Origin: Daejeonella sp.
GTDB lineage: Bacteria; Bacteroidota; Bacteroidia; Sphingobacteriales; Sphingobacteriaceae
Assembly (NCBI GenBank): GCA_041749185.1
Contig: JBGTBV010000146.1
Coordinates: forward strand, 4,898 to 68,897
Direction of reading: 5' to 3'
DNA: 64,000 nucleotides
Part shown: in pieces, positions 5,931-45,506 of the stretch
Layout of the letters: each line of letters opens with the position of its first letter
Numbering within the stretch: the first letter of the stretch is position 1
The notes under the pieces: generated by a model
What the model was told of the DNA's origin: nothing
The model's database searches: none
The model's input: the letters and a program-made list of their open reading frames with translations, nothing else
Program-made: the position numbers and the translations under genes

Positions 5931-7025
5931 TCACTTCCATACTTCTTTTACTTTTTCGGCTATGGTATGCTCAGCCCGAAAAGTTAGTCCTAATAAGGAA
6001 GCAATAGTTTGGGCCAACTGCTGCTGATAGAGTTGCGTATCTGTTTTGATTTCGCCTTTTGCAGCGATGCCCGGGGCGATCAGTCCAAACCAGGTTTCAT
6101 CAGATCCGGGAATACTTTTGCCGTGCTCTGTCCATAGGTTTTTGTTCATATCTCCGCGACCGTGATCTACGGTTATCAGCAACGCCGTTTTATTTTTATA
6201 CCGGGGGTTAGATTGTAGGTATGTCCATATCTCCTGCAACCATTTATCAACCTGATGGGCTGCCTGCAGGTAAGACCGGTATTGCCCGGCATGAGCCCAT
6301 TCGTCGGTTTCGCCATAAGCGATATACAACACTTTAGGCTGATGAATTTTTAAGTGTTCCATGGCGGCATAATGCGTATACACATCCATACATTCTGCAC
6401 TGTTCCAGGGCCTGTAACTATCCGCCAGCATTTGATTGATGAGTACCTGTTTCTCTGAAGGCTTGACGCCGCCGCTGGCATCAAAAGCAGAAATTACCGG
6501 GAAGCCGGCCCGCTCCTCATTTAATATTCTATCGAAAGCGTTCCAGGCACCTAAAGCGACAACTTTGTTCTTAAATGCCGCCTGCCGGTTTATAAATTCG
6601 AGCACCGTAACGTTCGGGTTGGCCGGATAGGCGTTTGAATTGATACGCTCATCGGCATAACCTGTAAAAAGCTCACTATAACCCGGGTAAGAAAACCAGT
6701 AGTTATTGGCGGTGTTAACCTTGTTGCCAACTTGCCTGTTGCCATACAATTGCCCCTCCCGGCCTAATTTTCCCCACACAAACGGCAGCAATTTTTCCCG
6801 GCTGGCCTGTTCGGTATTTTTATAAAACTCCTCAAAAATCAGGCTGCTGTCGCCCTGATTAAAGCGTGTGTTTTTTGCCAAAGAGGTATCTAAACCTTTA
6901 AATACCTCCTGCCAGCGCAAGCCGTCGGTCGTTATGATGATTAAGTTCTCAATTTTGTTTTGTGCGTTTACGTTTACGGCCGCAAAGAGAAAAGTTATAA
7001 ACAATATTTTTACGATAGATTTCAT
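5931..7025 (-). CDS. alkaline-phosphatase-superfamily enzyme (phosphodiesterase/nucleotide pyrophosphatase-like), secreted
   Basis: Signal peptide present. Metal-site-like motifs are ITTDGLRWQEVF near the N-terminus and YGETDEWAH / VDHGRGD near the C-terminus. Confidence 0.65.
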   Translation of the reverse strand: MKSIVKILFITFLFAAVNVNAQNKIENLIIITTDGLRWQEVFKGLDTSLAKNTRFNQGDSSLIFEEFYKNTEQASREKLLPFVWGKLGREGQLYGNRQVGNKVNTANNYWFSYPGYSELFTGYADERINSNAYPANPNVTVLEFINRQAAFKNKVVALGAWNAFDRILNEERAGFPVISAFDASGGVKPSEKQVLINQMLADSYRPWNSAECMDVYTHYAAMEHLKIHQPKVLYIAYGETDEWAHAGQYRSYLQAAHQVDKWLQEIWTYLQSNPRYKNKTALLITVDHGRGDMNKNLWTEHGKSIPGSDETWFGLIAPGIAAKGEIKTDTQLYQQQLAQTIASLLGLTFRAEHTIAEKVKEVWK

Positions 7026-11843: not shown

Positions 11844-12800
11844 ATGCGGAAACTTTTTTACCTCCTTGCGGCTACATTGCTGATTTTTTTTCCAGCGGTT
11901 TACATATTTATCCCCAACCAGATTGTAGTTTCAAAATCCGAGTTAGTTGAATCGAGCGAGCGGATCATAGCCGCCCACTTAAACTATAACCGCGGGCGCC
12001 AAAAATGGTGGCCTGCTCAGGACGATATAAAAACTGAAAGTAAATTAGCTGCTGATACGGGTACCATAACTCTTGATGGCTACCAATTTCATTTCATGGA
12101 TCCGCGGTTCAATTTAACAGAGGTGCTGATCAAGAAAGGAAACCTGGAAATAGAAAGTGTAATAACCTGGGAAGCTATGCCTAAAAATCTGATGAAAATT
12201 ACCTGGATCGGCACGTTTACAACCAGTGTTAATCCTTTTAAACGCGTTGCAGAATATCAAAAAGCGGTGATGCTGAAAAAGAATATGCGAACAATTTTAG
12301 ATAATCTGCTCGGCTATATTGTCAGTTCAGAAAACATTTATGGTTTTAATTTCCGAAGAGAAACCGTAAGAGATACCGTTTTGGCAACGGCAACCATTAA
12401 CAGCAAAACCTATCCCGGGCTTCCTGAAATATATAACCTGATCGACTCTGTAAAGCGCTTCTCTAAAGCAAAAAATGCGAAGCAGCAAAATCCGCCCATG
12501 TTAAACATCTCCGTAACCGAGAGCGGCGGCTACCGCACCATGATAGCCATACCCATTAATAGAGTAATTGAGCAAAACGAGAATATTGCCGTGAAGCGGA
12601 TGGTGCCCGGCAATATTTTAGTTGTCCGGGTAACAGGAGGACCAAATACCATTGAAAAAGCGTTTGATCAAATGAAAATTTACATGCGGGATTTTAAACT
12701 AACCTCTCCGGCAATACCTTTTCAATCGCTCGTTACAAACCGGATTGCTGAGCCCGACACGGCGAAATGGGTAACAGAACTTTACTATCCTATATTTTAA
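11844..12800 (+). CDS. hypothetical N-terminally membrane-anchored protein (possibly SRPBCC/GyrI-like ligand-binding folds)
   Basis: N-terminal TM segment LLAATLLIFFPAVYIFI with no catalytic motif. The fold guess is only a resemblance. Confidence 0.55.
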   Translation: MRKLFYLLAATLLIFFPAVYIFIPNQIVVSKSELVESSERIIAAHLNYNRGRQKWWPAQDDIKTESKLAADTGTITLDGYQFHFMDPRFNLTEVLIKKGNLEIESVITWEAMPKNLMKITWIGTFTTSVNPFKRVAEYQKAVMLKKNMRTILDNLLGYIVSSENIYGFNFRRETVRDTVLATATINSKTYPGLPEIYNLIDSVKRFSKAKNAKQQNPPMLNISVTESGGYRTMIAIPINRVIEQNENIAVKRMVPGNILVVRVTGGPNTIEKAFDQMKIYMRDFKLTSPAIPFQSLVTNRIAEPDTAKWVTELYYPIF

Positions 12801-12882: not shown

Positions 12883-13623
12883 TTATTCGTGGTGACCCGA
12901 TTCGTCTTTAAACGTTTTCATCAAACGATCCCAGAAGGTGAAATATAATCCATAATTATCCCTGCATTTGAGATGATGCAGATTATGATGAATGGGATAG
13001 CCCTTTAACCGATGCCAGCTTGTTTGCCTGTAGGTATAATTTGTTAATTCATACCCGGCGTGGCCGCGTACATTCTTGTAAACCATATATATCAAAAAAC
13101 ACAAAATAGCTAACGGATGTGCGGGAATGAATATAATCATTATCGGGAGCACCGCTGCTTGTATAATTGCTTCGAGCGGGTGAAATGAAAGGGAAGTAAA
13201 CGGTGATGGATTAGTTGAAAGATGATGAACAGTATGTATTTTTTCATACCACCCTGGAAGGTGTAGCAAACGATGAGTCCAGTAGAAATACATGTCATGA
13301 AAAAGCATGAGCAGGAAGATGGATGCCGGCATGTAAATTACATCAAGTGTGTTAACTTCCATATAGATAACGCTGTAACCATTTTGATACAACAAAAACA
13401 CCCCATAGCCCGAAAAGGCAAATAGGCATAACGACGTAAAACTGTAGTTTAGTTCTCGCCTAATCTGGGCGGGCACAGAATACTCAGGCTGTATTTTGCT
13501 TTTTTTTAGATGCATGCTTTTTCGCGAATAATAGCTTAAGTAAAAAGCCACCATAGTAATGAGGAATAGTACCGGAACCAGAAAGGTGCTTAAAATCCAG
13601 AAATATTCGTGTATAATATTCAT
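12883..13623 (-). CDS. fatty acid hydroxylase / sterol desaturase superfamily membrane di-iron enzyme
   Basis: Four or more TM helices and three His boxes: HDMYFYWTHRLLH, HTVHH and HHNLHH. Its start lies 1 nt after the stop of the upstream KAS III-like gene. Confidence 0.85.
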   Translation of the reverse strand: MNIIHEYFWILSTFLVPVLFLITMVAFYLSYYSRKSMHLKKSKIQPEYSVPAQIRRELNYSFTSLCLFAFSGYGVFLLYQNGYSVIYMEVNTLDVIYMPASIFLLMLFHDMYFYWTHRLLHLPGWYEKIHTVHHLSTNPSPFTSLSFHPLEAIIQAAVLPIMIIFIPAHPLAILCFLIYMVYKNVRGHAGYELTNYTYRQTSWHRLKGYPIHHNLHHLKCRDNYGLYFTFWDRLMKTFKDESGHHE

Positions 13624-13624
13624 A

Positions 13625-14512
13625 TCAGAATTGCCAAAGCCCTGCTGTAATTAATCCGCCGGTTCCAAAGCTACAGATCATCACCTTTTTATTTTGAATT
13701 TCGGATTTTATAATATCTAAAACAATACCTGTTGTGGCACAGCCGCAATTTCCGGTCATCTTAGCTATATTTATGAACCGTAACGGATATTTTGAAAACA
13801 CCTGTTCAAGATGATTGATAATCTGCTCATTTACCTGGTGGAGGATCAATATGTCCGGGTGACCGCATTCTGAAATGAAATTCAAATAGAAGCTTTCCGC
13901 TTCTTTCATCAGTTTAATGGCCAGATGATTATTAAGAAGGAGCCCGAGATGTTTACGTGAATCAGTTAAAATCTCCTCCAGATTCTCTGATATAATTTCA
14001 TCAGCATCGTGCCCTAAGCCAATCTTTACTACGTTGTGAAGATCTTTATACTGTTTGCTTTTGGAATGAATCAGTCTTTTATTATTGTCAGAAAAAGAAA
14101 TGCAGCTTGCAAATACGCCGTTGTTAAAAGCTTTGTAAACCGGACTGGATGGCGAAGATGCTTTGCGAGCCGCATCCGCCGTAACTACCAATACATTACT
14201 TCTGTTAAATTCGGCTAAATGAGAAGCAAGAATAAGCGCAGATACACCGCCGGCACAACCCTGAACCAAATCGATGGTATGAGTATTACTAAGTAATGGA
14301 TGGAAGCATTGATTGAGGCTTTGACCAAGAGATGGGGCAATGGAATCAGGGCAAGAAGTGGCAACCAGCAAATGCGAATACTCCATTTTTTCATCAAATA
14401 CCCGATCTAGGCAATATTCAGAAAGACTTAAAACCGTATGCTTTCCCAGATTGATTTTATCTAAAACTATGCTTCGATGTTCTGAAAACATTCGGCTTAT
14501 TGCTACACCCAT
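13625..14512 (-). CDS. 3-oxoacyl-ACP synthase III (FabH)-like condensing enzyme, short form
   Basis: Thiolase-fold contexts for the Cys/His/Asn triad: VQGCAGGVSAL, ILHQVNEQII and TGNCGCATTG, plus a C-terminal FGTGG. At 295 aa it is shorter than a typical FabH. Confidence 0.75.
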   Translation of the reverse strand: MGVAISRMFSEHRSIVLDKINLGKHTVLSLSEYCLDRVFDEKMEYSHLLVATSCPDSIAPSLGQSLNQCFHPLLSNTHTIDLVQGCAGGVSALILASHLAEFNRSNVLVVTADAARKASSPSSPVYKAFNNGVFASCISFSDNNKRLIHSKSKQYKDLHNVVKIGLGHDADEIISENLEEILTDSRKHLGLLLNNHLAIKLMKEAESFYLNFISECGHPDILILHQVNEQIINHLEQVFSKYPLRFINIAKMTGNCGCATTGIVLDIIKSEIQNKKVMICSFGTGGLITAGLWQF

Positions 14513-14553
14513 AACGCGTTCTAAAAAAGGATTCTGAAGAATCTTGAATGCAT

Positions 14554-14572
14554 AAATTTATATTATAAATTT
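14554..14572. promoter_or_regulatory. 19-nt perfect palindrome AAATTTATA-T-TATAAATTT in the divergent promoter region
   Basis: Read directly. It sits in the 103-bp gap between the divergent starts at 14512 (-) and 14616 (+). Confidence 0.35.
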
Positions 14573-14615
14573 TTATATTTAAGTAATAATACTTTATAAT
14601 TTTACCACTAAGCTT

Positions 14616-16286
14616 ATGAAACCTCATTCTCTCCAAAAGAAAATAGTGGCTTATATGCTGCTTTTTTCATGTGTTAACTTATTTGTTGGATGCAACCGCT
14701 TTTACCGTCCGGTTGAAGTAAATAGTCCGAATCTCGAAAGTAAAAATCTTTCATTAAGGCAACTAACCGGAGAAGGTCGCTATTTTATCCTACGTAAAGG
14801 AAAGGAGAGTTATTCATTATCTGATATAGTTTACAGCCAACCTGCGATGACATTAACAGCAAGCGTTCATCAAGTTCGATCTAATCATAATCTTTACACT
14901 CAAGCCCAAAAAAAAACCCGCCGCATTTATGTAAAATCAAAGCAACAGGATGCAGTTCTCGAAGAAGTGCACTTGTTCATACCAAATACGTTAAAGATCA
15001 ATACTACCGGCCGCTATGTTTTAGATCTTTCTGATATTCAGAAAATAGAAGTGATCGAATTCGACAAAGGGAAAACTACTTCGAGTTATGTTTTGGGAAC
15101 TATTGGTTTTGTAGTAGGTGCCGTGTTAATTGCTGCAATTATTTCAGCGGCAACTTACGAAGAGCCCGAACCAACCTCGTCCTGCCCGTACATCAGTACA
15201 TATGACGGGGAAAAATATGTATTGCAGGGCGAAATTTATGGGGGCGCTATATTTCCACAATTGCAAAGAGATGATTACCTGCCCTTAAAAACACAGTCTA
15301 TAAATCAAATTTACAGCCTAAAAATTAGTAATGAACTGCAGGAAATCCAGCATACTGATTTTGCTGACCTGTTGGTCGTAGAACATAATTCTGCTCATAA
15401 AATAATGATCGGGCCGGATGGCCAGCTTCATACCATTTTAAATCCACAGGCGCCTTTAAAGGCTCTGTTAAACAATCAAATGGATGTAAGCACATCGCTA
15501 TTAACAAAAGATAACAAGAGTTGCTTGTTTAACGGCACCAGCAGCCCGAATAATTCTGAAGAGCTGAACTTAACTTTTAAAAATGATTTGAAAAACACCA
15601 GTGCGAAACTTGTCCTTAATCTAAAATCGTCTTCCTGGTTTGATAATTTGTATAGCGAATTTACAAAGGGTTTAGGTAGCTACTATCCAACCTGGATTAA
15701 AAAGCAGAGCAAGGAACCCTCAGCTAATTTGGAAAAATGGATGGACGAACAGCATATTCCGTTAACTATTTCTGTAAATACTCCACAGGGATGGAAAATA
15801 GTTAAAAAACTCAAAACGATTGGCCCATTGTTAAACCGTGAATTAATTATCCCTCTAAGCGTTCCTGCTGATGAACAGACGGAGATAAAATTATCATGCG
15901 GTTATTTGTTTTGGGAGGTGGATTATGCATCAATTGATTTTTCTGACGATGAGCCTTTCACCACTACTCGGTTGAAACCGTTTGAAGCCATCAATGAACT
16001 TAACGTTGATGTTTTGCCTGAAATTCTTCAACCCGATAGGAAGTTTTTAAACCAACCTAATTCGGGTGATGCCACTATCTTAAAATACAAAGTTAAAAAA
16101 ACTCCAGACGGGAAAACTCAAACGTTTTTTCTTCACAGCAGCGGATATTATGAACATGTTCGGAATTATAAAGGAACACCTAAAACGGCTTTTCTCAAAA
16201 GTTTTAAAAAACCGGGTGCCTTTCCTGCTTTTAGTAAAAGGCGGTTCTCAGAAACATGGAAAACATTAGCGAGTGCTCAACAATGA
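14616..16286 (+). CDS. hypothetical lipobox-bearing membrane protein (556 aa)
   Basis: N-terminal signal with lipobox LFVGC, a second hydrophobic helix (YVLGTIGFVVGAVLIAAIISAATY) around residue 170, and a ~380-aa C-terminal domain with no recognisable motif. The composition is AT-rich/K,N-rich. Confidence 0.7.
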   Translation: MKPHSLQKKIVAYMLLFSCVNLFVGCNRFYRPVEVNSPNLESKNLSLRQLTGEGRYFILRKGKESYSLSDIVYSQPAMTLTASVHQVRSNHNLYTQAQKKTRRIYVKSKQQDAVLEEVHLFIPNTLKINTTGRYVLDLSDIQKIEVIEFDKGKTTSSYVLGTIGFVVGAVLIAAIISAATYEEPEPTSSCPYISTYDGEKYVLQGEIYGGAIFPQLQRDDYLPLKTQSINQIYSLKISNELQEIQHTDFADLLVVEHNSAHKIMIGPDGQLHTILNPQAPLKALLNNQMDVSTSLLTKDNKSCLFNGTSSPNNSEELNLTFKNDLKNTSAKLVLNLKSSSWFDNLYSEFTKGLGSYYPTWIKKQSKEPSANLEKWMDEQHIPLTISVNTPQGWKIVKKLKTIGPLLNRELIIPLSVPADEQTEIKLSCGYLFWEVDYASIDFSDDEPFTTTRLKPFEAINELNVDVLPEILQPDRKFLNQPNSGDATILKYKVKKTPDGKTQTFFLHSSGYYEHVRNYKGTPKTAFLKSFKKPGAFPAFSKRRFSETWKTLASAQQ

Positions 16287-16287
16287 A

Positions 16288-17520
16288 ATGATGCTGAAAA
16301 ATGGACTTACTGCCGGCTACACTTTCTCAACTGAGATCACTAATGTACAGAAAGCGCAAAAGTCAGGGAATAAAGGCAATTCTGTGCGAATTCTGAAAGG
16401 CTGGGAGAAATGCTGGATTGAATTAAGGGCAGGCTTGCATATATTCAGTCTAGCCATACGTAATTACGGCTCAACTAGCCGCTCGGTCAAAGTTTTAAAA
16501 ACCTTGTATTTATTTAAAAAATCAATTTTGGGTGGGATTGAAACAAAAATTGTTAAGGCAGATTCAAAGTATTATCATAGCATATATGCCCCCGGCTACC
16601 CTTCAGAAGCCTTTGATCGGTATATTGAGGCTGAATTTCATCGAATTTCGCCGCTAAAAAAGAAAACTAACTTTCTAAATTTCATCTTTTTCGCAATTAC
16701 CAGTAAATGTCCGCTGCAATGCGAGCATTGTTTCGAATGGAATAACTTAAACAAGGCTGAAACTTTTTCTTTGGAGGAGTTAAAAAGTGTGGTTAATAAA
16801 TTTCAGGCTGAGGGCATCACCCAATTTCACTTTAGTGGCGGCGAACCTATGGTAAGAATTAAAGACCTTTTACAATTAATTGCCGGAAGCAGAAAAGACT
16901 CCGAATTTTATGTTTTAACTTCCGGATTCAATTTTACCGCAGCTCATGCCGTTTCTTTAAAACAGGCAGGACTTACCGGTGTAGTGATTAGTCTGGATCA
17001 TTTCGAACCCGAAAAACATAATGCTTTCCGCGGTTTCCGCAATTCTTACAACGACGTAATCAAGGCCGTACAAAACGCAAGTGAGCAGAACCTAATTGTG
17101 GTATTAACAATCTGCGCCACCAAAACTTTCATCAGCCAGGGAAATCTAATTAAATATGCAGAACTGGCAAAAAGCTTAAATGTGCCATTTATTCAAATTC
17201 TTGAGCCTAAAGCAATTGGTCATTATGAAAACACAGACGTTTGCCTGAATGAAAATCATATTTGTTTATTAGAAGAATTCTACCACAAATTAAACTTTGA
17301 CCCAGATTACGTAAATTATCCCATAATCATTTATCATGGCTATCATCAACGCCGGATCGGCTGTCTGGCAGGCGGAAATCGTACGTTGTATATTGATTGT
17401 GAAGGCTTTGTAAACGCTTGTCCATTTTGCCATACTAAAAATTTTAATATTCGGAATGCTATTCAACCAGGAATAAATATACCATCAGCTATGCAGTCCA
17501 TGGGTTGCCAACGTTATTGA
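16288..17520 (+). CDS. radical SAM enzyme with C-terminal SPASM/twitch-like Cys cluster and ~130-aa N-terminal extension
   Basis: CX3CX2C motif CPLQCEHC, a GGEPM SAM-binding motif, and a C-terminal CLAGGNRTLYIDCEGFVNACPFC stretch (CX13GX4C followed by CX2C). The ATG at 16288 lies 1 nt after the upstream stop. The ORF-track GTG at 16273 would overlap that gene by 14 nt. Confidence 0.85.
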   Translation: MMLKNGLTAGYTFSTEITNVQKAQKSGNKGNSVRILKGWEKCWIELRAGLHIFSLAIRNYGSTSRSVKVLKTLYLFKKSILGGIETKIVKADSKYYHSIYAPGYPSEAFDRYIEAEFHRISPLKKKTNFLNFIFFAITSKCPLQCEHCFEWNNLNKAETFSLEELKSVVNKFQAEGITQFHFSGGEPMVRIKDLLQLIAGSRKDSEFYVLTSGFNFTAAHAVSLKQAGLTGVVISLDHFEPEKHNAFRGFRNSYNDVIKAVQNASEQNLIVVLTICATKTFISQGNLIKYAELAKSLNVPFIQILEPKAIGHYENTDVCLNENHICLLEEFYHKLNFDPDYVNYPIIIYHGYHQRRIGCLAGGNRTLYIDCEGFVNACPFCHTKNFNIRNAIQPGINIPSAMQSMGCQRY

Positions 17521-17652: not shown

Positions 17653-20600
17653 TTAATATTTAGCCAAAACAGCTTTACTATTGATGATTGAAACATTCAA
17701 GAGTTTTCCTTCACTTGTCAGAATTATCCAGTTAGACTCTTTATTAGGGTTTAATTTGGAAATGAAGCTAATCTCATTAAAATTAAAAAAAGAATTTACC
17801 CAATATTTAGGTGGTAAAAACGATTTGCTGCTGGTATTGTATTCCAATATAGCGAGTCCGAGGGCATCATATTTTCCCTCAAAAGGGATGGCTCCCCAGA
17901 AATTTCCGTTTATTAACAATGAATTTTTATCCGCTGTGGCCGCTGCCGAAACGAGGGGAGCCTGCTGATATAAGAATGGAAGTTCTGTTACCGTTTCAGA
18001 ACGGAGCACATCGCTGATAAAAATGCTGCTGAATGAATTTACTTCCAACCGGCCTTCTTCAGAAATCCGATCTTTAAATATCTCGGAAGTAGTTTTATCG
18101 GCCATTTTCTGATAACTGAGCCACTCCTTTTTTAGAAAAGGCAGCTCCTGCTCCAGATCAGTTTTTGGCCTGAAAGGGTAATGGTTTCCATTATAAAAAT
18201 AAGACAGGATGAAATCTGGCTTACCGTCGTTATCCAGATCATTGTTATAGCCATACAATGGCTGATTTTCTGCAACGTTATATTTATTGTTCAATCCCCA
18301 GTTACCGGCAAGCAGATCGGCTTTACCATCCTGGTCTAAATCGGCTATAGTTGCCGACTGCCACCAGCCCGATTTGTTTTTCAGCCCGGGCAAATTCTGT
18401 TTTCTAAGCGTTTTGCCATCATTTAAAAAAACCTGTATGGGTTGCCATTCAGCAGCAATAACTAAATCATCCTTACCGTCGGCGTTTAAATCGGCAACAG
18501 CCAGATCCCGTATAAACGGAATATTTGCCAGTTCAGAAAATAGCGCAGGCGGAGCTTTTTCAAAATTTCCGTTGCCACGATTCAGAAATAAAAACGAAGG
18601 CATTTTTCGGGTGTAGTCCTTAAAATAAACCGCTCCGGCCAATAGGATATCTTTTAATCCATCACCGTTATAATCTATTACTGCAAGTTTTGATATCGGA
18701 GAAAGCTGGGCAGGGAGTTGCTTTGCTTCGAATTTCAGGTTCCCCAAATTCATAAAAATGCGGTTGGGCTTAATACTTGGGAAATCAATCAACGGATGTT
18801 CTGAATTGGTAACCACCAAATCTAAATCCTTATCGTTATCCAGATCAACCCATTGAGCTTCCGCGTCGGCAGCGCCGAGATATTCAGAAAAAGCATCTAC
18901 CGATACTTTGTTGTACTTTCCAGCCTCATTTCCTACTAAAATATACTTTTCCTGGCCAGCAATCCCGCCAATATACAGATCATCAAAACCATCATTATTA
19001 ATATCTGCTACCGCGATGGCTGGTGTATGCTTCAGATAACTATGCGGTAACAGGGAATAATAATTAAAATCAGGGGTCTCGGTGACGCTTATTTCTGCGA
19101 TCAGTTCGGCATTGATATTCTGGTATTCAAATTGGGAACTGCCTTGTACAAAATCAGAAATAACACCCGATATCTGATTGCCAGAAGCAATAACCGCTGC
19201 CACGTCCCAAACAATTTTTTGATTTGTTTGGAGCGTAAAATCCTTCAGGGTCTGGTAAGAATTATCCGGCCATACCAACAAAAGATCAGCAGGCTTATCG
19301 CCGTTTGCAAAGGTAAAAAGCAAATTATTGTTCTGATTGCTTTGGAAAGCCGTACTGGTTTGGATTTCCTGATGGTCAACATCGCCGCCCCTGGAGCGAA
19401 GGAAAAGCTTGGTTCCTATCCCGTCCATATTGGCTCCTTTAAATTTCACCGAAAATGTAAGGAACGCAGGCTTCTTTTCTGCGCCGGCCCTGATTGTATT
19501 GTTCTGGTATAAGAAAGCCGGTTCATCCATATTATTGCACACAATGTCCAAATCGCCGTCATTATCCAGATCTGCATAAACGGTACCTGCCGAAGCGGAA
19601 GGTTTGGTCATAGCATTAACTGCTGACACATCTGTAAACTTCAACGCACTATCGCCGCGGTATAAAACATTGGCAACCCGGCCGTCTGGCATTTTTTCAA
19701 TTTTTGTCCGGTCAAACTTCCGGTTTTTATCAAAGTCGTTCAGCACAGTCGGATCTCCAAGATATTTCAGGTAATCCAGATCGTTTAAACGTTTTTTAAT
19801 CCCGTTAGAAAAAAACAAATCTTTGCGGCCATCCATGTCAAAATCCTGTATCAAGGGCGACCATGTCCAGTCTGTTGCCGAAACGCCCGCATACAAACCG
19901 ATATCTACAAATTTCTTCCCGTTTGCCACATTTAGCTGGAGCGAATTTCTTGAGTTCTGATAGTAGAAGCCGCTTTTAACTTCGAGATTGTAAATGTCCA
20001 GCGGTTCATCATTAATGGTCGTTTTCAGCATCTTCATATCGGCGGGAAGCATATCTGTAGAAACAATGTCCAGGTTTCCATCCAGATTAATATCGCCCGC
20101 GACGCTCCCCATAGAAAAAAGGCTGGTATGCCCGAAAGCTTCTTTCAATTTCTCTTTAAACGTGCCGTCTTTTTGGTTGATGTAATAATAATCCTGTTCG
20201 AAAAAATCATTGCTCACGTAAATATCGTCCCAACCATCATTATTAAAATCAGAAATGCTAAGCCCCAAACCATAGCCAATTGAAGCGGCGTAAATTCCCG
20301 ATTGCTGGGTAACGTCGGTAAATTTATTGTCATCGTTTCTGAAGAGATGATCGCCGGCAATTTCATTGTACTTAAACCGCAAGGTTGAGTCGCCGTAGGT
20401 ATCGTTGCTATGAACCGAATGGGTGAGCAGGAACATATCCAGGTCGCCGTCTTTATCGTAATCAAAAAATGACGCCTGAGTAGACAGTCCGGAGAAATCC
20501 AAACCATAATCCGCTGCCTTTTCTGAGAAGGTAAGATTGCCGTTGTTGATATATAATTGATTTTTCCCCTTCAGGCTTTTGTATCCCGAAACAACCGAAA

Positions 20601-21027
20601 CGTAGATATCTTTAAAACCATCGCTGTTAATATCAACAACGGTAACGCCTGTTTTCCAGTTTCCCGAACCTGCAACACCTGCCTTTTGGGTAATATCTTC
20701 AAACTTCAGATCACCTTTGTTAAGATATAATTTGTTCGACTCCTGGTTAGAAACAAAATACAAATCTTCTAAACCATCGTTATTAAAATCGGCGGAAGCC
20801 AACCCGGCGCCATTATAGAAATACAGATAATCGAGAATGTTCAATGAATCACTCTCGGTAATGTTGTTTGAAAACGCAAGCCCGGTCTTACCGGCATCCA
20901 GTAACTCAAAAAATCCCTTCTGCCCGTCGTCTTTATTTCCGTTACAGGAATACAAAGCTGCCAAAAATGTTAGCCCTGCACCGAGACAGAGTAAAGCATT
21001 TTTAGAAGAGCGGCGGGGACTTAGCAT
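17653..21027 (-). CDS. FG-GAP/VCBS-repeat lipoprotein with central UnbV/ASPIC-like domain (CRTAC1-like), paralog 1
   Basis: Lipoprotein signal (LAALYSC). There are 12 or more DxDxDG-type repeats (DFNNDGLEDLYF, DINSDGFKDIYV, DLDNDGDLDIVC ...). The central block GIGTKLFL...VWPDNSYQTL resembles the UnbV/ASPIC domain. Confidence 0.85.
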   Translation of the reverse strand: MLSPRRSSKNALLCLGAGLTFLAALYSCNGNKDDGQKGFFELLDAGKTGLAFSNNITESDSLNILDYLYFYNGAGLASADFNNDGLEDLYFVSNQESNKLYLNKGDLKFEDITQKAGVAGSGNWKTGVTVVDINSDGFKDIYVSVVSGYKSLKGKNQLYINNGNLTFSEKAADYGLDFSGLSTQASFFDYDKDGDLDMFLLTHSVHSNDTYGDSTLRFKYNEIAGDHLFRNDDNKFTDVTQQSGIYAASIGYGLGLSISDFNNDGWDDIYVSNDFFEQDYYYINQKDGTFKEKLKEAFGHTSLFSMGSVAGDINLDGNLDIVSTDMLPADMKMLKTTINDEPLDIYNLEVKSGFYYQNSRNSLQLNVANGKKFVDIGLYAGVSATDWTWSPLIQDFDMDGRKDLFFSNGIKKRLNDLDYLKYLGDPTVLNDFDKNRKFDRTKIEKMPDGRVANVLYRGDSALKFTDVSAVNAMTKPSASAGTVYADLDNDGDLDIVCNNMDEPAFLYQNNTIRAGAEKKPAFLTFSVKFKGANMDGIGTKLFLRSRGGDVDHQEIQTSTAFQSNQNNNLLFTFANGDKPADLLLVWPDNSYQTLKDFTLQTNQKIVWDVAAVIASGNQISGVISDFVQGSSQFEYQNINAELIAEISVTETPDFNYYSLLPHSYLKHTPAIAVADINNDGFDDLYIGGIAGQEKYILVGNEAGKYNKVSVDAFSEYLGAADAEAQWVDLDNDKDLDLVVTNSEHPLIDFPSIKPNRIFMNLGNLKFEAKQLPAQLSPISKLAVIDYNGDGLKDILLAGAVYFKDYTRKMPSFLFLNRGNGNFEKAPPALFSELANIPFIRDLAVADLNADGKDDLVIAAEWQPIQVFLNDGKTLRKQNLPGLKNKSGWWQSATIADLDQDGKADLLAGNWGLNNKYNVAENQPLYGYNNDLDNDGKPDFILSYFYNGNHYPFRPKTDLEQELPFLKKEWLSYQKMADKTTSEIFKDRISEEGRLEVNSFSSIFISDVLRSETVTELPFLYQQAPLVSAAATADKNSLLINGNFWGAIPFEGKYDALGLAILEYNTSSKSFLPPKYWVNSFFNFNEISFISKLNPNKESNWIILTSEGKLLNVSIINSKAVLAKY

Positions 21028-21044
21028 AGTTTAGTTGATTTTTC

Positions 21045-24000
21045 TCAATTACCGGCTTTAGCACTGATTGCCGTTCCTGATTTAATTTTTGGATTCAGCC
21101 GGTACGTAATCAGTGTATCATTGTTTCTGCCGAATAAGTAAATTTGATTTTGATTTTTGTCCTGAACCACCAACGAAGAACGAACCTGGCCATTTAATTT
21201 CAAGCCGGTTTGGGTCGGGGGCAAATATTGGAATTTATCGTTTTTGAACCGAAATATTTGGCCGTAGCTGGCGTCAAGCCGCCCAACCTCAGGCTTAAAC
21301 CCATAAAAATTACCGGCCAGAATTAGCTCCTGTGTGCCATCGCTATCCAGATCATCAATTAAAATCGTGTTAACAGACGATAGTTGGGCCTGATACGGGA
21401 AGGGCTTAAAGCTGAACGGTTTGTTATTTCCGGCATTAACAAACACCCCGGATTGCAGAAGACTGATCTGCCGTACTTCGGCCTCATCGAGCAATTCCTG
21501 CGGGAACACTTCGCTGAAGGTCTTCCCCGCGTAATCTTCATATCTCAGAAATTTCTTTTTCAGAAAAGGAAGCTGACCCGTTAAATCTTGTTTCAGATGA
21601 AAAACGTATTCTTTGTTATCGTTTTTAAATAAGGACATTACGCTCTCTTTCGTGCCGTTGTTGTCAAAATCATTAATGTACAGCCTCATGGGCATTTTCT
21701 CAGAGGCCCTGAATTTTGAATTTGAACCGAGGTTTCCGGCAATAATGTCGGCATCGCCATCGCCATCAATGTCGCTGACTGCTACACTATTCCACCAGCC
21801 TTTGTAATCTTCCAGCCGCTTGTCGCGGATAAACTTTCCCTGCTGATTTTTAAAAATCAGAATGCCCATCCAGTTGCCCGTAATGATCAGGTCCTCGAAC
21901 CCATTTTTGTCTATATCCGCCCATTTAGCATCGGTAACCATCCCAAGGTTACTATTCGGCCCAAATATTTTTGCGGAAATATCCGAAAAATTGCCCCTGC
22001 CGTTGTTTAAAAGCAAGTAAGATTTCGGGGAACTTCCGTAACTGCCGGGTACGCTCCGGCCGGCAATAAACAAATCCATATCGCCATCATGATCAATATC
22101 TGAGGGAATAATTACCGAAGCATTTACAGAAACGGGGATTGTTCTTTCGGTATTTCGCGTCAGCTTACCCTTACCGTCATTTTCAAAAAAACGCGGATAA
22201 AGTACTTTCGAACCCGGTTCCTCTGCATTACCACCGAAAGTAACAATCAGGTCGGCATCGCCATCTCCATCAAAATCAGCTATAGCGCCGCCTGCGTTTT
22301 CCAGATAGATCTGCTTATTAAACTCATCGGGCACGTACTTTGTAAATTTGCCCGATTTACCGGAAAGATACACAGATGCGGTTTGATCTTTGGAAGCGCT
22401 CATGTAAAAATCGTCCAGACCGTCGCCGTTCAGATCGCCCGAGGCGAGATACGGGTTTTCTGTAGAAAGCATCTGGAGCATCAAACGCTCATTGTCAAAA
22501 TCAATGTAGTTGTCTTCTATATTTACCGGCGGAACAGCAAATGATTCGCTGTTTGCTTCAATTAGCAACGGTTGTTTAGATACCGGATTGTAAGAGTACG
22601 TTAAATTAGCATCATCCTGCTTAACGTTATACAGACTGTCTGATCTTAAAGATCGGAGAGTTTGATATTTTCCATCCGGCCAGATAACCTGAACAGAATC
22701 CGCGGTCTGATATTCTCCTAAACCTACGGTGATCAGATTGGGCGAAATGCTGCTCTGAAATCCGCGGGCTGGCTGGTGATAATAGGTAGTAACCTGATTT
22801 TTATTAAAGGTTTTAACGGTACTCCCCACCCCGTTTTTGTTCAACTTGTTGCCCGAAAGATGCAATTGGATGTAATGATTGCCCGAAATTTTCTCCGCGT
22901 TATTTTTGTAAATAAACAGAGGCATGTTTACGTTATTTACAATCAGGTCGTTATCGCCATCGTTATCTAAATCTCCGTAGGCGGCACCGTTGCTAAACGA
23001 TTCTTTGTTTAAGCCCAGTTCTTCAGAACGGTTTGAAAAGGTTAAGTTCTTATTATTGATAAACGCATAATTTGAAACCGGGGTTGATTTCATTTTATCG
23101 GTAAAGTCTTTAAAGTCGAATTTTTTACCCTGCGCAATCTTCTCCATATTATCCCTGTTGGCCAAAAACTCGATGTAATCCTGGTTGGTGAGATCTTTGA
23201 AAATACCGTTAGACACGAAAATATCTTTCCAGCCATCGTTGTTCATATCAAAAGTTAAGGCTCCCCAACTCCAGTCGGTAGCGGCCACCCCTGCATAAAA
23301 AGCGATTTCAGAAAAAGAACCGTCGCGGTTGTTAAGTTGCAGGGAATTTTGCATGTACTGATTGTAATAACCGTCCCGTTGCTTGGCTTTAACAATGTCG
23401 AAAGATTCAAACGAGGTCATCGTTTTTAAGCGTTTGTCTCCTTCGGGAAGCATTTCTGTAGTAAATACATCGTAAAACCCGTCGTTATTTATATCGGCGA
23501 TGTCTGATCCCATGGAGGCCAGGCTTAAATGACCAAAGCCCTCTTCAATACTTTCTCTAAAGGTTCCGTCGGCCTGATTTAAGTATAAATAATCGTGTTC
23601 AAAAAAATCGTTCGATACGTAGATATCCGGGTAACCGTCCTGGTTAATGTCTACCACAGAAAGCCCCAGACCGAAGCCAATATCACTGGAATAGATTCCG
23701 GCGCTGGCTGTCACGTCCAAAAATTTTCCAGAATCATTTCGGTATAGCCTGTCTCCGCCAAGCTCATCAACCTCCTGGCGCAGATTTTTGCTGAAGTCAA
23801 AACTACCTATCGGCCTGAACGAATTGTTCAACACATAGCAGTCGAGATCGCCGTCGAGGTCGTAATCAAAAAATACGGCGTGGGTAGACAGACCGCCGTC
23901 GGCCAGCCCGTATTTTTTGGCTTCATCTTTAAAACTTCCGTTTTGCTGGTTTACAAAAAGCTCGTTCTCGGTTTCGCCGCCTTGAGCATTGCCGCTATTG

Positions 24001-24386
24001 CAAACGTAGATATCCAGCCAGCCATCCGCATTGATGTCAACCATGGTTACGCCGGTGCTCCAGTATTTAGAACCTTTTACGCCTGCCTTCTCGGCGATGT
24101 TCTCAAATTTCCAGGCTCCGTTATTAATAAGCAACTGGTTATCGCCCTGGTTTGACGTGAGGTACACATCGTTAACGCCGTCGTTATTCACATCGCCAAT
24201 GGCTACCCCGCCACCGTTGTAATAATTGCGGAATGTAAACACGTTTGTCCCCTGCTTATCCTCCAAATTGTTTGCAAAGTTTACACCGATGCTTTCGTTG
24301 CTTTGAAGAGAAAAAAGCGTCTGCTCTTTTTTGGAACACGAACCAAATATCGTGGCTGTAAAAAGAAAAATAATAGTTCTATCCAT
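21045..24386 (-). CDS. FG-GAP/VCBS-repeat lipoprotein with central UnbV/ASPIC-like domain, paralog 2
   Basis: Same architecture as paralog 1 (DVNNDGVNDVYL, DINADGWLDIYV, GVGSTVKT...IWPDGKYQTL). I prefer the ATG at 24386 (MDRTIIFLFTATIFGSCS, lipobox), because the ORF-track start at 24413 lies inside a terminator hairpin. Confidence 0.85.
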   Translation of the reverse strand: MDRTIIFLFTATIFGSCSKKEQTLFSLQSNESIGVNFANNLEDKQGTNVFTFRNYYNGGGVAIGDVNNDGVNDVYLTSNQGDNQLLINNGAWKFENIAEKAGVKGSKYWSTGVTMVDINADGWLDIYVCNSGNAQGGETENELFVNQQNGSFKDEAKKYGLADGGLSTHAVFFDYDLDGDLDCYVLNNSFRPIGSFDFSKNLRQEVDELGGDRLYRNDSGKFLDVTASAGIYSSDIGFGLGLSVVDINQDGYPDIYVSNDFFEHDYLYLNQADGTFRESIEEGFGHLSLASMGSDIADINNDGFYDVFTTEMLPEGDKRLKTMTSFESFDIVKAKQRDGYYNQYMQNSLQLNNRDGSFSEIAFYAGVAATDWSWGALTFDMNNDGWKDIFVSNGIFKDLTNQDYIEFLANRDNMEKIAQGKKFDFKDFTDKMKSTPVSNYAFINNKNLTFSNRSEELGLNKESFSNGAAYGDLDNDGDNDLIVNNVNMPLFIYKNNAEKISGNHYIQLHLSGNKLNKNGVGSTVKTFNKNQVTTYYHQPARGFQSSISPNLITVGLGEYQTADSVQVIWPDGKYQTLRSLRSDSLYNVKQDDANLTYSYNPVSKQPLLIEANSESFAVPPVNIEDNYIDFDNERLMLQMLSTENPYLASGDLNGDGLDDFYMSASKDQTASVYLSGKSGKFTKYVPDEFNKQIYLENAGGAIADFDGDGDADLIVTFGGNAEEPGSKVLYPRFFENDGKGKLTRNTERTIPVSVNASVIIPSDIDHDGDMDLFIAGRSVPGSYGSSPKSYLLLNNGRGNFSDISAKIFGPNSNLGMVTDAKWADIDKNGFEDLIITGNWMGILIFKNQQGKFIRDKRLEDYKGWWNSVAVSDIDGDGDADIIAGNLGSNSKFRASEKMPMRLYINDFDNNGTKESVMSLFKNDNKEYVFHLKQDLTGQLPFLKKKFLRYEDYAGKTFSEVFPQELLDEAEVRQISLLQSGVFVNAGNNKPFSFKPFPYQAQLSSVNTILIDDLDSDGTQELILAGNFYGFKPEVGRLDASYGQIFRFKNDKFQYLPPTQTGLKLNGQVRSSLVVQDKNQNQIYLFGRNNDTLITYRLNPKIKSGTAISAKAGN

Positions 24387-24400
24387 CAAAAAGTAGACAT

Positions 24401-24431
24401 TAAAAAAGCGCATCGTTAATTAACGATGCGC
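24401..24431 (-). terminator. intrinsic terminator/attenuator between susD-like gene and the VCBS genes
   Basis: A 24-nt perfect palindrome gcgcatcgttaattaacgatgcgc (24408..24431), followed on the minus strand by a run of six T. Confidence 0.75.
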
Positions 24432-24469
24432 TTAAATTAACAAAAATCTATGCGATTTAAACCCGGTTA

Positions 24470-25999
24470 TTAATAACCAGCGTTTTGTGTCAAATTAGGA
24501 TTAGTATCAACAGCCCGTTGCGGTATTGGAAATAACGTACGGCTTGGATCTGATTTTGTTGCTCGCTGATCAACCGGCTCGTTGAACGTGCCGAAACGGA
24601 TCTGGTCATTTCGTCTCCAGCCTTCCCAGTACAATTCGCGGCCACGCTCTGCTAACAATGAAGTGGCATCCACAGAAGCAACCGGAGTTGCACCCCGAAC
24701 GGTTCTCAGGTTATTTACAAGAACCAACGGGGTTTGACCTTGAGGATCGGTTCCACCGCGAAGTATGGCTTCCGCTTTCATTAGCAGAACGTCTGCGTAG
24801 CGTAAAAACACATAATCATTACCAGCCTGTTCGATAATATTATCGTTTGCAGCATTGGGTTTTGGAATATATTTGATTACTCGTATACCCTGATTTTCTG
24901 TCGAGAACAAAAGATTTGCGTTTTCTGTGAAAATTAGCGGATTCCCACTTCTGTCTTTCAGCGCTACATTGTTCGGCCCAAATTGCTGACCGATTAAAAA
25001 TCCGGAGCGCAAACCGATCCGATCAGTTAATCCTGGAAAGCTTCCGCCAATTCGCTGATCGTTGGCTTCGAAAGATTTGTAAAAATCAGCCAACGTTGTA
25101 AATCCATTCCATCCTCCCGGGGTTTGATTGTAATGCAAAGTCATCCGAAAACGATTCTGCACATTACCAATTGCGGCACCTTCATTGTTTGGTATAACGA
25201 AGATTAATTCGGTAGAGGCAGTTGAATTATCTGGAGTAAAGTTGTTAAAATAGGTTGAAGATAAAGACTTGCCAGTTATTTTGTTCGTGTATTCAATGGC
25301 TTTGTCCATATCCGCCTTTGCGAAGGTAAAGGGACCGCCCACTGTTGCAGCAGTATAAACTGCTTTGTTTAGATATACTTTTGCTAACAGTGCCTGTGCT
25401 GCGGCTTTATTTGCTTTTCCCGGATCACCGGCAGAAAGGTTAGCCTCGGCAAATTCCAGATCCTTGATAATGAAATCAGTCGCTTCCGTCCGCGTGAAAA
25501 CTTTAGGATTTGTTTCTGGAGAGTCGGTAAGCTCACGAAATGGCTGTTGACCGAAAAGGTCAACTACCTGAAACATAAAGAACGCACGCAGAAAGCTAGC
25601 CTCTCCTTTAATCTGATTATCTGTTGCTTTGTCAATTACTTGCGTAGCACGATAAATACCAGTATTCAGTTGATCCCAGCTACTGTTTATCTGATTATGA
25701 AACGGGTCCCAGGTGTGCTGGTGTAATTTACGCCAGGTTCCAAAATCACCCCAGTCTGTTCCTCGGGTTGGACCCATCATCTCATCTGTAGAATGTTCCT
25801 GGAGTGCGTACACGTTAGATTGATCGGAAAAGCCATTTAAAACTGAATAAACACTTCCTAAATCTGCCGTAGACGCAGTATTACTGGTATTTACAAACTT
25901 CGATCCCAACGCCTCTTCATCCAATTTGGTACAGCTTGATGCACTAAGTATCAAGGCACTACAGCACGTTGCTAAAACTTTAAAATTTAAATTTTTCAT
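24470..25999 (-). CDS. RagB/SusD-family nutrient-binding outer-membrane lipoprotein
   Basis: Lipoprotein signal (LSASSC), located 20 nt downstream of the SusC-like gene, with typical size and SusD-like TPR-rich composition (RAFFMFQVVDLFG, LRYADVLLMKAEA). Confidence 0.9.
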   Translation of the reverse strand: MKNLNFKVLATCCSALILSASSCTKLDEEALGSKFVNTSNTASTADLGSVYSVLNGFSDQSNVYALQEHSTDEMMGPTRGTDWGDFGTWRKLHQHTWDPFHNQINSSWDQLNTGIYRATQVIDKATDNQIKGEASFLRAFFMFQVVDLFGQQPFRELTDSPETNPKVFTRTEATDFIIKDLEFAEANLSAGDPGKANKAAAQALLAKVYLNKAVYTAATVGGPFTFAKADMDKAIEYTNKITGKSLSSTYFNNFTPDNSTASTELIFVIPNNEGAAIGNVQNRFRMTLHYNQTPGGWNGFTTLADFYKSFEANDQRIGGSFPGLTDRIGLRSGFLIGQQFGPNNVALKDRSGNPLIFTENANLLFSTENQGIRVIKYIPKPNAANDNIIEQAGNDYVFLRYADVLLMKAEAILRGGTDPQGQTPLVLVNNLRTVRGATPVASVDATSLLAERGRELYWEGWRRNDQIRFGTFNEPVDQRATKSDPSRTLFPIPQRAVDTNPNLTQNAGY

Positions 26000-26019
26000 C
26001 TTATTATGCGATTTAATAA

Positions 26020-29004: not shown

Positions 29005-29265
29005 GTTAGTTAAATTCAAATTGGTTAGTTTATAAATTGGGATATTCTTAAGATAAAGTTAAGTAATTGTACTTGATACACAAATAAAGCAATATTTTTT
29101 TTTTGACCTTGAAAGTGCTTTAAAGCGGGTTTTTGGTGGAAGTTGAAAAAATTATTTTAAACCCAACTGCAAATCAGGAAATTTATGGCGTTAAAAATAT
29201 ATAATGCTATCTAAACAATTTCCGCGACCGCGACTTGTTGGGCATGTTTGGTCTATCGCTCTTAA

Positions 29266-30082: not shown

Positions 30083-31066
30083 TTGTCGAAAATTAAAAAA
30101 ATAGGCGTTTTTACATCGGGGGGTGATTCTCCTGGAATGAATGCCTGCATCAGGGCGGTCGTGCGGTCAAGCATATACATGGGATTAAAAGTAATGGGTA
30201 TCCGGCAAGGCTACCGCGGCATGCTCGAAAAAAACTTTTACCCGATGGATTCCCGCTCGGTGAGCAACATTATTCATTTGGGAGGCACTATTCTAAAAAC
30301 CGCCCGATGCGCAGATTTTCAAACCGAAGCTGGAATGGAAATAGCTTATCAAAACTTAAAGGCCGCCAAAATTGATGCGCTGGTGGCTATCGGCGGAGAT
30401 GGTACCGCAACCGGGGCAGAGCGCTTTTCTGAGAAATATAATGTGCCAGTCATTTGCATTCCGGGCACCATAGATAATGATCTGTACGGAACAGATTTTA
30501 CGCTCGGTTTTGATACTGCCAATAATACCGTGATTGAGGCTATTGATAAAATACGTGATACAGCAGATTCTCATGATCGTTTGTTTTTTATCGAAGTAAT
30601 GGGCCGGGATTCCGGCTGTATTGCCCTCCGCTCTGGTATTGCCGGCGGGGCCGAAGCTATTTTGCTTCCCGAAAGGGACACCGCCATTGATGAACTGATC
30701 CAAAAACTCGAAGAAGGCGCCCGAAGCAAAAAATCATCAAGCATTGTAATTGTAGCCGAGGGAGATAAAAACGGCGGTGCGTACGACGTGGCGAAGAGGG
30801 TTAAGGAAAAGTTTAATTTTTACGACACCAAGGTGACCATTTTGGGGCACCTGCAACGCGGCGGATCTCCGAGCAGCACAGACCGGGTTTTGGCATGCCG
30901 GTTCGGTTACGCTGCTGTGAAGGCGCTAATTGCCGGAGAGACCCGTCAAATTGTAGGCATACGCGGCAATTCAATCAAATTAACAAGTTTACACGAGGCT
31001 TTGAATTTGCACGAGTTTAAGCTTGAAGAAGATTTACTGGAGCTCACAACAATCCTATCCATATAG
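30083..31066 (+). CDS. pfkA: ATP-dependent 6-phosphofructokinase
   Basis: Motifs GVFTSGGDSPGMNA, IGGDGT, PGTIDND and MGRDSG. It must start at TTG 30083: an in-frame stop lies at 30062..30064, and the first in-frame ATG lies downstream of the conserved SGGD motif. Confidence 0.93.
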   Translation: MSKIKKIGVFTSGGDSPGMNACIRAVVRSSIYMGLKVMGIRQGYRGMLEKNFYPMDSRSVSNIIHLGGTILKTARCADFQTEAGMEIAYQNLKAAKIDALVAIGGDGTATGAERFSEKYNVPVICIPGTIDNDLYGTDFTLGFDTANNTVIEAIDKIRDTADSHDRLFFIEVMGRDSGCIALRSGIAGGAEAILLPERDTAIDELIQKLEEGARSKKSSSIVIVAEGDKNGGAYDVAKRVKEKFNFYDTKVTILGHLQRGGSPSSTDRVLACRFGYAAVKALIAGETRQIVGIRGNSIKLTSLHEALNLHEFKLEEDLLELTTILSI

Positions 31067-31067
31067 C

Positions 31068-33450: not shown

Positions 33451-33496
33451 AAGCGGCGTCAACTTATTCTCCAAAGCGGCAACAACTTATTTTCCA
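33451..33496. repeat. 23-nt tandem direct repeat (20/23 identical) spanning the stop codon of the iminopeptidase gene
   Basis: aagcggcgtcaacttattctcca is immediately followed by aagcggcaacaacttattttcca. Confidence 0.7.
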
Positions 33497-34503: not shown

Positions 34504-34509
34504 TGAAGA

Positions 34510-36516: not shown

Positions 36517-36620
36517 GGATTTATTCTGTAAATATTCTCTTAAAATAAATATACTACAATTGTGTACGCCGCCGCAGCTACGGGTCAATAATTTTGTTGC
36601 TTGCAGGGCCCGCTTTTCTA

Positions 36621-36725: not shown

Positions 36726-36791
36726 AACCTGAAATCAAGAGCACTAAATCTTTAGCTGATGTTGCTACTCAAAAATGGCAGCATCCTTAAA

Positions 36792-39254: not shown

Positions 39255-39261
39255 ATAGATT

Positions 39262-40602: not shown

Positions 40603-40630
40603 TTATGATCGGGTTAAAAAAATAAAAAGG

Positions 40631-45505: not shown

Positions 45506-45506
45506 T

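Follow-up and report, generated by a model that had tools for sequence, protein, structure and literature searches.

Within a 64,000-nucleotide stretch of DNA from Daejeonella sp. (assembly GCA_041749185.1, contig JBGTBV010000146.1; hereafter the window), four adjacent genes form a divergent module, which our analyses show to consist of a two-gene core and an accessory arm. The core codes for an unannotated membrane protein and a radical S-adenosylmethionine (SAM) enzyme, while the arm, which codes for a FabH-like condensing enzyme and a membrane di-iron hydroxylase, is found in one ancient branch of the core. The module constitutes a radical-SAM-centred biosynthetic or maturation cassette organized around a protein family without annotation, and it probably makes or attaches an unusual envelope lipid. 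That all four gene products work as one module at the cytoplasmic membrane, with a lipid or a lipid-linked compound as substrate, is the reading that we prefer, although we hold it tentatively, as plausible and a little short of probable.

The genes are arranged as two tightly spaced pairs. On the minus strand, a thiolase-fold enzyme of 295 amino acids (aa) resembling 3-ketoacyl-acyl carrier protein synthase III/FabH (KAS; 13625..14512), recognized by PF08541 and a Cys-His-Asn triad, precedes a 246-aa membrane protein of the fatty-acid-hydroxylase superfamily PF04116, a di-iron hydroxylase/desaturase (HYD; 12883..13623), with a single T between the TGA stop codon of KAS and the ATG of HYD. On the plus strand, the 556-aa protein of the window, for which we use the working name P556 (14616..16286), carries a lipoprotein-type signal and represents an unannotated family, described here from its conservation and an AlphaFold2 (AF2) model. 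Its TGA stop codon is separated by a single A from the ATG, at 16288, of the radical SAM enzyme (rSAM; 16288..17520; 410 aa from this ATG; PF04055 and PF13353), for which an alternative GTG start at 16273 overlaps the end of P556. The 103-bp intergenic region between KAS and P556 (14513..14615) has a G+C content (GC) of 20.4%. This AT-rich divergent region, the positions of the four open reading frames (ORFs) and the 1-nt junctions within both pairs are as an initial annotation of the window had described them. At the centre of the region (14543-14583) lies a near-palindrome with 20-nt arms, 80% complementary and 1 nt apart, which was dropped as a candidate operator because its sequence is not kept in the corresponding intergenic regions at 18 related loci; these regions are mostly 84-117 bp long (one of 177 bp) and AT-rich, and their sequence is not conserved. 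Scans for the sigma-70 consensus, a promoter type not applicable to Bacteroidota anyway, and for intrinsic terminators, by a method ill-suited to these bacteria, did not exceed the results with shuffled sequences.

Comparison of related loci shows that P556 and rSAM form the invariant, translationally coupled core of the module. The rSAM gene lies directly downstream of P556, on the same strand, in 75 of 76 species-representative loci whose downstream flank is long enough to tell, and in one related locus (L152; L-numbers designate the related loci) the two genes overlap by 11 nt. The one well-flanked P556 homologue that lacks a neighbouring rSAM is at L077 (5755-7650), with a convergent histidine kinase gene downstream. 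Homologues of P556 are numerous (at least 381 in a 90%-identity database, and 3,620 family representatives at 50% identity), and the 391 relatives identified among species-representative genomes, one per species, belong nearly all to Chitinophagaceae and other Bacteroidota, including the cultured genera Niastella, Flavisolibacter, Ferruginibacter, Limnovirga, Ginsengibacter and Echinicola. Cultured carriers of the two-gene form include Niastella caeni, Flavisolibacter nicotianae, Ferruginibacter paludis and Echinicola jeungdonensis. At two-gene loci, genes for small outer-membrane beta-barrel proteins (PF13568), one or several of them, often lie directly upstream of P556; genes for outer-membrane barrels occupy this position in 35 loci, as well as in L084, L113, L080, L082 and L086.

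The KAS/HYD pair, by contrast with the core, is found upstream in 8 of 67 core loci, which are those with the P556 proteins closest to that of the window (45-67% identity). The divergent arrangement of the window is shared by L003-L012, L067 and L095-L147, while in L084, L113, L122, L127, L134 and L138 the genes are collinear in the order P556-rSAM-KAS-HYD, and in L086/87 and L112 they are collinear with a sulfotransferase gene between rSAM and KAS. In L151 the order is P556-KAS-(HYD::rSAM), HYD and rSAM being joined in frame as a 646-aa fusion, and in L085 a gene for an acyl-AMP ligase follows KAS. Since the linkage persists through four gene orders and a fusion, a chance neighbourhood is excluded. 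Sulfotransferases of PF13469 occur within the module in three independent lineages (L057, 6001-10846; L086, 6973-7995; L112, 2750-3754), in L057 between P556 and rSAM at a locus without KAS or HYD; these insertions hint that the product or target of the module can be sulfated.

KAS is also found apart from the other three genes. Among 24 well-flanked metagenome loci with KAS, 11 hold all four genes, one lacks only HYD and 12 hold KAS alone. At the KAS-alone loci (L107-L145, e.g. L123, 8001-9536), the next gene codes in 14 of 15 cases for a secreted START-like protein of ~204 aa; KAS and this START-like protein make up another conserved pairing of the family, distinct from that with the module. 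In a neighbour-joining tree of KAS, divergent-type sequences formed one clade and collinear-type sequences another, in which the KAS-only lineages were nested, and the corresponding tree of rSAM contained two matching KAS-linked groups, apart from a KAS-free clade of 54 members. Two metagenome-assembled genomes (MAGs; L004 with L032, and L005 with L037) contain both kinds of core locus, with and without KAS/HYD, which marks the two kinds as paralogues whose functions are presumably non-redundant. A competing explanation for these patterns, two unrelated operons (KAS with HYD, P556 with rSAM) that share only a promoter region, would agree with the fact that P556 and rSAM mostly occur without KAS/HYD and that KAS lacks the other three genes in half (12 of 24) of the metagenome loci. 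It is, however, largely refuted by the linkage kept over four gene orders and a fusion, by the nesting of KAS-only loci in KAS clades otherwise linked to rSAM and P556, and by the congruence of the KAS and rSAM trees, and we regard it as very improbable. The four-gene functional unit proposed in the initial annotation is thus co-conserved elsewhere, rearranged and once even fused, but it is not made of four equal parts, the core usually occurring without KAS and HYD.

No Pfam or NCBIfam family matched P556, in keeping with its initial description as a lipobox/transmembrane protein of unknown function. A Pfam search with 16 members of the family (E<=1) produced no consistent match, ten N-terminal variants produced none, and a look-up of the exact window sequence returned no record. 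Sequence features identify P556 as a predicted lipoprotein-type, membrane-anchored protein: the N-terminal signal, with a positively charged n-region and a hydrophobic h-region, ends at Cys26 (14691-14693), invariant in 141 of 141 divergent representatives, and the residue at position -1 is Gly, Ser or Ala in 16 of 16 aligned members. In the AF2 model (predicted local distance difference test, pLDDT, 83), residues 27-150 form an alpha/beta N-domain, followed by a hydrophobic helix of 23 residues within positions 151-180 (15066-15155), a short low-confidence linker, the dipeptide Cys190-Pro191 (15183-15188) and then two beta-sandwich domains. This dipeptide, where the first beta-strand begins and a median of 6 residues beyond the helix (for Cys190), is conserved in 140 (Cys190) and 141 (Pro191) of the 141 representatives, within a motif of the form C-P-[YFHQ]-[IV] in which Pro occupies +1 and no Arg is conserved. 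Near-invariant polar residues were also found at R218, D220, N239, E243, D299, D436, D474 and Y512, and conserved positions of the sandwiches are occupied by Gly, Asp, Asn, Glu, Arg, Trp and Tyr. A Cys-His catalytic dyad was considered and dropped, no His being conserved across the 141 representatives. Comparison of the model with the PDB by Foldseek gave local jelly-roll/carbohydrate-binding-module matches with a template modelling (TM) score of ~0.15, on which a transfer of function was rejected.

The orientation of P556 in the membrane is contradictory in its signals. With a lipobox and one more helix, the N-domain is predicted to lie in the periplasm and the C-domain in the cytoplasm, a placement that would suit contact with the cytoplasmic rSAM, but the K+R counts before and after the helix (3.0 and 0.7, respectively) give the opposite topology under the positive-inside rule. 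The second helix is absent from only 2 of 132 P556 representatives. The rare variant L084 is an ordinary lipoprotein that has a CarboxypepD_reg domain and a Pro/Gly linker but lacks the second helix; its C-domain would be exported, which sides with the positive-inside rule.

The rSAM protein is an unambiguous member of the radical SAM superfamily (PF04055, E 2e-20, 73.9 bits against a gathering threshold of 29.5; PF13353 also matched). The CX3CX2C motif (C141/C145/C148; 16708-16731) and a GGEP motif are invariant in 20 sequences, as are Cys276 and four C-terminal Cys (359/378/381/407) at a presumed auxiliary cluster site (17362-17508). These patterns point to a twitch-like enzyme with one presumed auxiliary cluster: only five conserved Cys lie outside the core, compared with the seven-Cys SPASM motif for two auxiliary clusters, and the SPASM family PF13186 gave no match in the window rSAM and only weak ones in 3 of 20 relatives (best E 0.009). 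The other Pfam families expected from the initial annotation were detected (PF04116, PF08541 and PF04055, with PF08545 weak), leaving PF13186 as the one not recovered. In the AF2 model of rSAM (pLDDT 84), an N-terminal helical domain of ~100 aa is the family's own. Foldseek placed BlsE, SkfB, MoaA, viperin, SuiB and anSME at the top of its matches, and the best PDB sequence match was the thioether-forming SkfB. None of the NCBIfam equivalogs (MoaA, PqqE, NirJ and others) included rSAM, the best scores being 80-81 bits against cut-offs of 284-500. A role in defence like that of the prokaryotic viperins (pVip) was rejected, the PADLOC viperin match reaching 46 bits over ~110 core residues of 257-262 in a neighbourhood of lipid and envelope genes.

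Several of these observations bear on a rather different explanation, that P556 and rSAM are a protein-maturase pair in which rSAM would modify Cys190 (in the context Cys-Pro-Tyr/Phe), the modified P556 would itself be the product, and KAS and HYD would be loosely coupled helpers, by analogy with anSME, which acts on sulfatases, and with the sactisynthases, which act on Cys. The tight coupling of P556 and rSAM as a universal unit argues in its favour, as do the standing of C190 and P191 as the most conserved positions of the 141 representatives, their location after the low-confidence linker, where the first strand starts, the retention of the Cys-Pro motif while P556 diverges to 27% identity, and the proximity of rSAM to SkfB in sequence and to SuiB and anSME in structure. 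Yet the small-molecule enzymes MoaA, BlsE and viperin are equally close to rSAM, which differs from anSME in having no SPASM domain and one auxiliary-cluster site, and no RRE/PqqD-like domain was detected with it. Besides that, the many near-invariant polar residues of P556 look like those of a binding or catalytic protein rather than of a passive substrate, and neither the fusion of HYD with rSAM nor the fact that lipid enzymes were recruited repeatedly would be explained. We therefore consider a maturase pair of this kind unlikely, though the strongest of the competing explanations.

The two enzymes of the accessory arm keep the catalytic motifs noted in the initial annotation, which proved to be conserved across their families as well. 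KAS matches PF08541 with E 6e-7 and PF08545 weakly (E 1.5e-3), and its triad Cys86-His225-Asn255 (codons 14255-14257, 13838-13840 and 13748-13750) is formed by two invariant residues, H225 and N255, and a nearly invariant one, C86, among 16 family members. The family comprises 298 relatives, all about 295 aa long. The nearest PDB sequences are those of FabH (E 1e-9), with which KAS shares a thiolase-fold C-terminal domain, the triad and a GxGG-type C-terminal motif. It scores, however, far below the FabH models (41.4 and 37.6 bits for TIGR00747 and NF006829, with cut-offs of 249 and 292), is shorter than FabH (295 as opposed to ~320 aa), aligns through residues 44-286 to positions 74-312 of a 322-position profile and lacks ~30-45 N-terminal profile residues; no fab genes lie near it, the family being confined to contexts with rSAM, P556 and HYD or with the START-like protein. 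No candidate for DarA, the condensing enzyme that accompanies the FabH-like DarB in the flexirubin/dialkylresorcinol pair DarAB, was seen among the KAS neighbours in more than 60 loci (HYD, rSAM, P556, sulfotransferase, AMP-ligase, START-like), a survey of neighbours made without a search for DarA models.

HYD is a clear member of PF04116 (96.5 bits, E 2e-27; cut-off 31) with a hydrophobic N-terminal half and three His boxes, HDx6HRLLH, HTVHH and HNLHH (13261-13299, 13222-13236 and 12973-12987). The HX3H, HX2HH and HX2HH patterns of these boxes do not vary among 8 orthologues, nor do thirteen His/Asp positions. The superfamily includes sphingolipid, sterol, carotenoid and ornithine-lipid hydroxylases; HYD matched no NCBIfam subfamily and no PDB sequence, and is set apart within the superfamily by its linkage, and in one case fusion, to rSAM.

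In the reading that we prefer, the FabH-like enzyme would condense or transfer an acyl unit, the di-iron enzyme would use O2 to hydroxylate or desaturate the chain on the cytoplasmic side, and rSAM would abstract a hydrogen atom for further C-H functionalization (oxidation, or C-C or C-S bond formation). P556 would tether the soluble rSAM to the membrane and may present or accept the product, or pass it toward the outer membrane, possibly to the outer-membrane barrels. The fusion of rSAM with the integral-membrane HYD in L151 places the radical chemistry at the membrane. The family of HYD and the company of an acyl-AMP ligase, a sulfotransferase, a START-like binder and outer-membrane barrels lend the module a lipid flavour, which is the best reading of its gene content. 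Of the two kinds of product envisaged in the initial annotation, lipid-like or polyketide-like, the former is thus favoured, while the latter lacks specific support, there being no genes for an acyl carrier protein (ACP), ketoreductase (KR), dehydratase (DH) or thioesterase (TE).

A number of observations weigh against a lipid-directed module of four genes. No lipid enzyme lies near P556 and rSAM in 59 of 67 core loci, so the core reaction needs neither KAS nor HYD and may not concern lipid at all. Within the module there is no gene for an ACP, an acyltransferase, a flippase or glycerolipid synthesis. The nearest solved radical SAM structures include peptide and protein modifiers (SkfB, SuiB, anSME) besides small-molecule enzymes, and the lipid enzyme GDGT-MAS came only 28th among the structural neighbours of rSAM. 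The contradictory topology signals make the role of P556 as a cytoplasmic partner insecure. Furthermore, the literature searched held no description of a radical SAM enzyme combined with FabH/KAS III and a hydroxylase in Bacteroidota, and among public runs no RNA-seq data with the module sequence were found, the only matching runs being of hot-spring metagenome DNA.

A more specific proposal, which we put forward as a long shot, is that rSAM links the membrane-proximal Cys190 of P556, through a covalent bond of thioether type, to a carbon atom in a lipid chain, which KAS and HYD would supply and tailor in the four-gene variant. It would explain at one stroke the two invariant Cys residues that follow a helix, the sactisynthase-like neighbours of rSAM, the lipid enzymes and the HYD::rSAM fusion, and, if true, would amount to a new radical route to protein lipidation that gives P556 a second lipid anchor besides its lipobox Cys26.

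The initial annotation had matched the module to no known Bacteroidota pathway, and no characterized cluster emerged from NCBIfam, Pfam, PADLOC, the PDB or the literature searched, although partial likenesses exist. With SkfB, MoaA, BlsE, anSME and SuiB, rSAM shares the core CX3CX2C motif, GGE and a C-terminal Cys cluster, but it is only 11-18% identical to them, has its own N-terminal helical domain and showed no SPASM or RRE domain; against the MoaA and PqqE models it reached 80 and 76 bits, compared with cut-offs of 284 and 381. The substrate motif of the anSME-sulfatase system, C/S-x-P-x-R, is not found in P556. The name of the model TIGR04133 (rSAM_w_lipo) implies a radical SAM enzyme linked with a lipoprotein, as in P556-rSAM, the enzymes of this family being presumably encoded next to lipoproteins; rSAM lies outside it, at 55 bits against a cut-off of 425, and P556 has no NCBIfam model.

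Tes/GDGT-MAS and the bacterial Mss carry out radical SAM reactions on the tails of membrane lipids. GDGT-MAS is a detectable structural neighbour of rSAM, while the Tes model NF045702 scored 50.3 bits (cut-off 450), with only the radical SAM core aligned. Mss has been reported from anaerobes alone, and to function solely under anaerobic conditions (Sci Adv 2022, PMC13159169), whereas the module, compared with it by description only, includes an O2-dependent di-iron enzyme and occurs in mostly aerobic Chitinophagaceae. Predicted radical SAM enzymes are also encoded among genes of fatty-acid-synthesis type in the ladderane/polyunsaturated-hydrocarbon clusters of anammox bacteria and Desulfotalea (PMC2649909), but those clusters contain paralogues of FabF, FabZ, FabG and ACP and neither P556 nor a PF04116 gene, and their function is likewise unproven (PMC2649909). 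By analogy, the module may work most like the lipid-modifying radical SAM systems (Tes/GDGT-MAS, Mss) or like the radical SAM protein maturases, from both of which it differs in its partner protein and in the link to an O2-dependent di-iron enzyme.

P556 and rSAM constitute a gene pair that is widely represented, though unannotated, in Bacteroidota of soils, freshwater and hot springs. The partners of this pair (FabH-like enzyme, di-iron hydroxylase, sulfotransferase, acyl-AMP ligase, START-like binder and small outer-membrane barrels) suggest a part of envelope biochemistry not yet described. To our knowledge, radical SAM enzymes acting on membrane lipids are few and recent, and none is known to cooperate with, or to be fused to, an O2-dependent di-iron hydroxylase. 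Identifying the product would give a new protein family a function and could bring to light a novel lipid or a novel modification of proteins; among the variants, that of the window, with four genes, is the most informative because it includes lipid-handling enzymes.

The base composition of the module had initially been taken to suggest a foreign origin, from G+C counts of nine single 60-nt lines (17, 21, 21, 16, 22, 31, 30, 26 and 28), all of which proved exact. The dip survives a sliding-window analysis: with a GC of 38.2% over 4.6 kb, compared with 43.6% for the whole window, the module is the AT-richest stretch of its length there. Among sliding windows of the same length (mean GC 0.435, sd 0.021), 1.8% are as low as the module, all of them overlapping it, and the minimum (0.377) starts at 13201. 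Per-gene GC is 0.38-0.395 in the module, while the mean over the 39 genes of the window is 0.44 (sd 0.03); GC at third codon positions (GC3) is 0.345-0.363 in KAS, P556 and rSAM, the three lowest values of the 39, and 0.433 in HYD, which is ordinary for the window. The dip is therefore genuine but modest, about 5.5 points.

The nearest relative, in a Daejeonella MAG (L003), has the same four-gene module, with proteins 64-75% identical to those of the window, and no GC dip. A metalloenzyme/sulfatase-like gene directly adjoins HYD in this MAG (L003, 297-1388). Its orthologue in the window (5931-7025, minus strand, 364 aa) is 66% identical, a divergence comparable to that of the module, and lies inverted ~6 kb away, beyond genes for a Na+/H+ exchanger, MscS, a DUF1622 protein, a pyridoxamine-oxidase-like protein and a 318-aa protein, an instance of rearranged synteny. 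In 19 related loci, module GC tracks that of the host (0.31-0.455), being below its flanks in 16 of them by a median of ~1 point. No tRNA, integrase or direct repeats were found at the module borders, and the 64-kb window contains neither tRNA genes nor Rfam families at the gathering threshold. The absence of a dip in the Daejeonella MAG, the host-tracking GC and the lack of marks of mobility together make the dip a local peculiarity of the window genome.

The same data speak to the idea of a recently acquired, AT-rich secondary-metabolite island, polyketide-like or of the RiPP type (a peptide made on the ribosome and modified after translation), that would make a diffusible small molecule. 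Such an island would fit the position of the module at the GC minimum and the low GC3 of three of its genes, the occurrence of modules of type A in both Sphingobacteriales-like and Chitinophagales genomes, and the insertion sequence elements beside the related loci L138 (IS1) and L152 (IS1595). We nonetheless find it improbable, given the comparably diverged module and neighbour in the Daejeonella MAG, without a dip, the agreement of module and host GC and the unmarked borders, and also because the module contains no precursor-peptide ORF, ACP, KR, DH, TE or exporter and the core, with its 391 relatives, is a widespread housekeeping-like pair in Chitinophagaceae. As to foreign origin, what stands is the reality of the dip in the window genome; recent acquisition of the module is possible and weakly supported.

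The only other comparably AT-rich ORF of the window (31023-31919, plus strand; 298 aa, GC 0.388, z -1.8) has no Pfam match and overlaps the end of a phosphofructokinase gene by 44 nt. The 318-aa protein mentioned above (11844-12800, plus strand), which is convergent with HYD, has an N-terminal hydrophobic helix and a weak match to the GyrI-like, small-molecule-binding family; it has no homologue in ~150 related loci and hence is not part of the module. On the other side of the module, the minus-strand interval 17653-29019 is a cluster resembling a polysaccharide utilization locus and unrelated to the module, with two tandem genes for FG-GAP/VCBS plus ASPIC/UnbV proteins of ~1,120 aa, a SusD-like gene (24470-25999) and a SusC/TonB-dependent receptor gene (26020-29019). 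Further along the same strand, an alpha-glucan/maltodextrin utilization cluster (33487-50407), with all genes in one direction, codes for an alpha/beta hydrolase, a glycoside hydrolase (GH) of families GH13+CBM48, a GH31 enzyme, a major facilitator superfamily transporter, a GH13 enzyme, a GH65 phosphorylase, a cyclomaltodextrinase and a TonB-dependent receptor. Near the start of the window, a minus-strand gene (2378-5233) codes for an S8 subtilase with a C-terminal sorting domain for type IX secretion (Por_Secre_tail).

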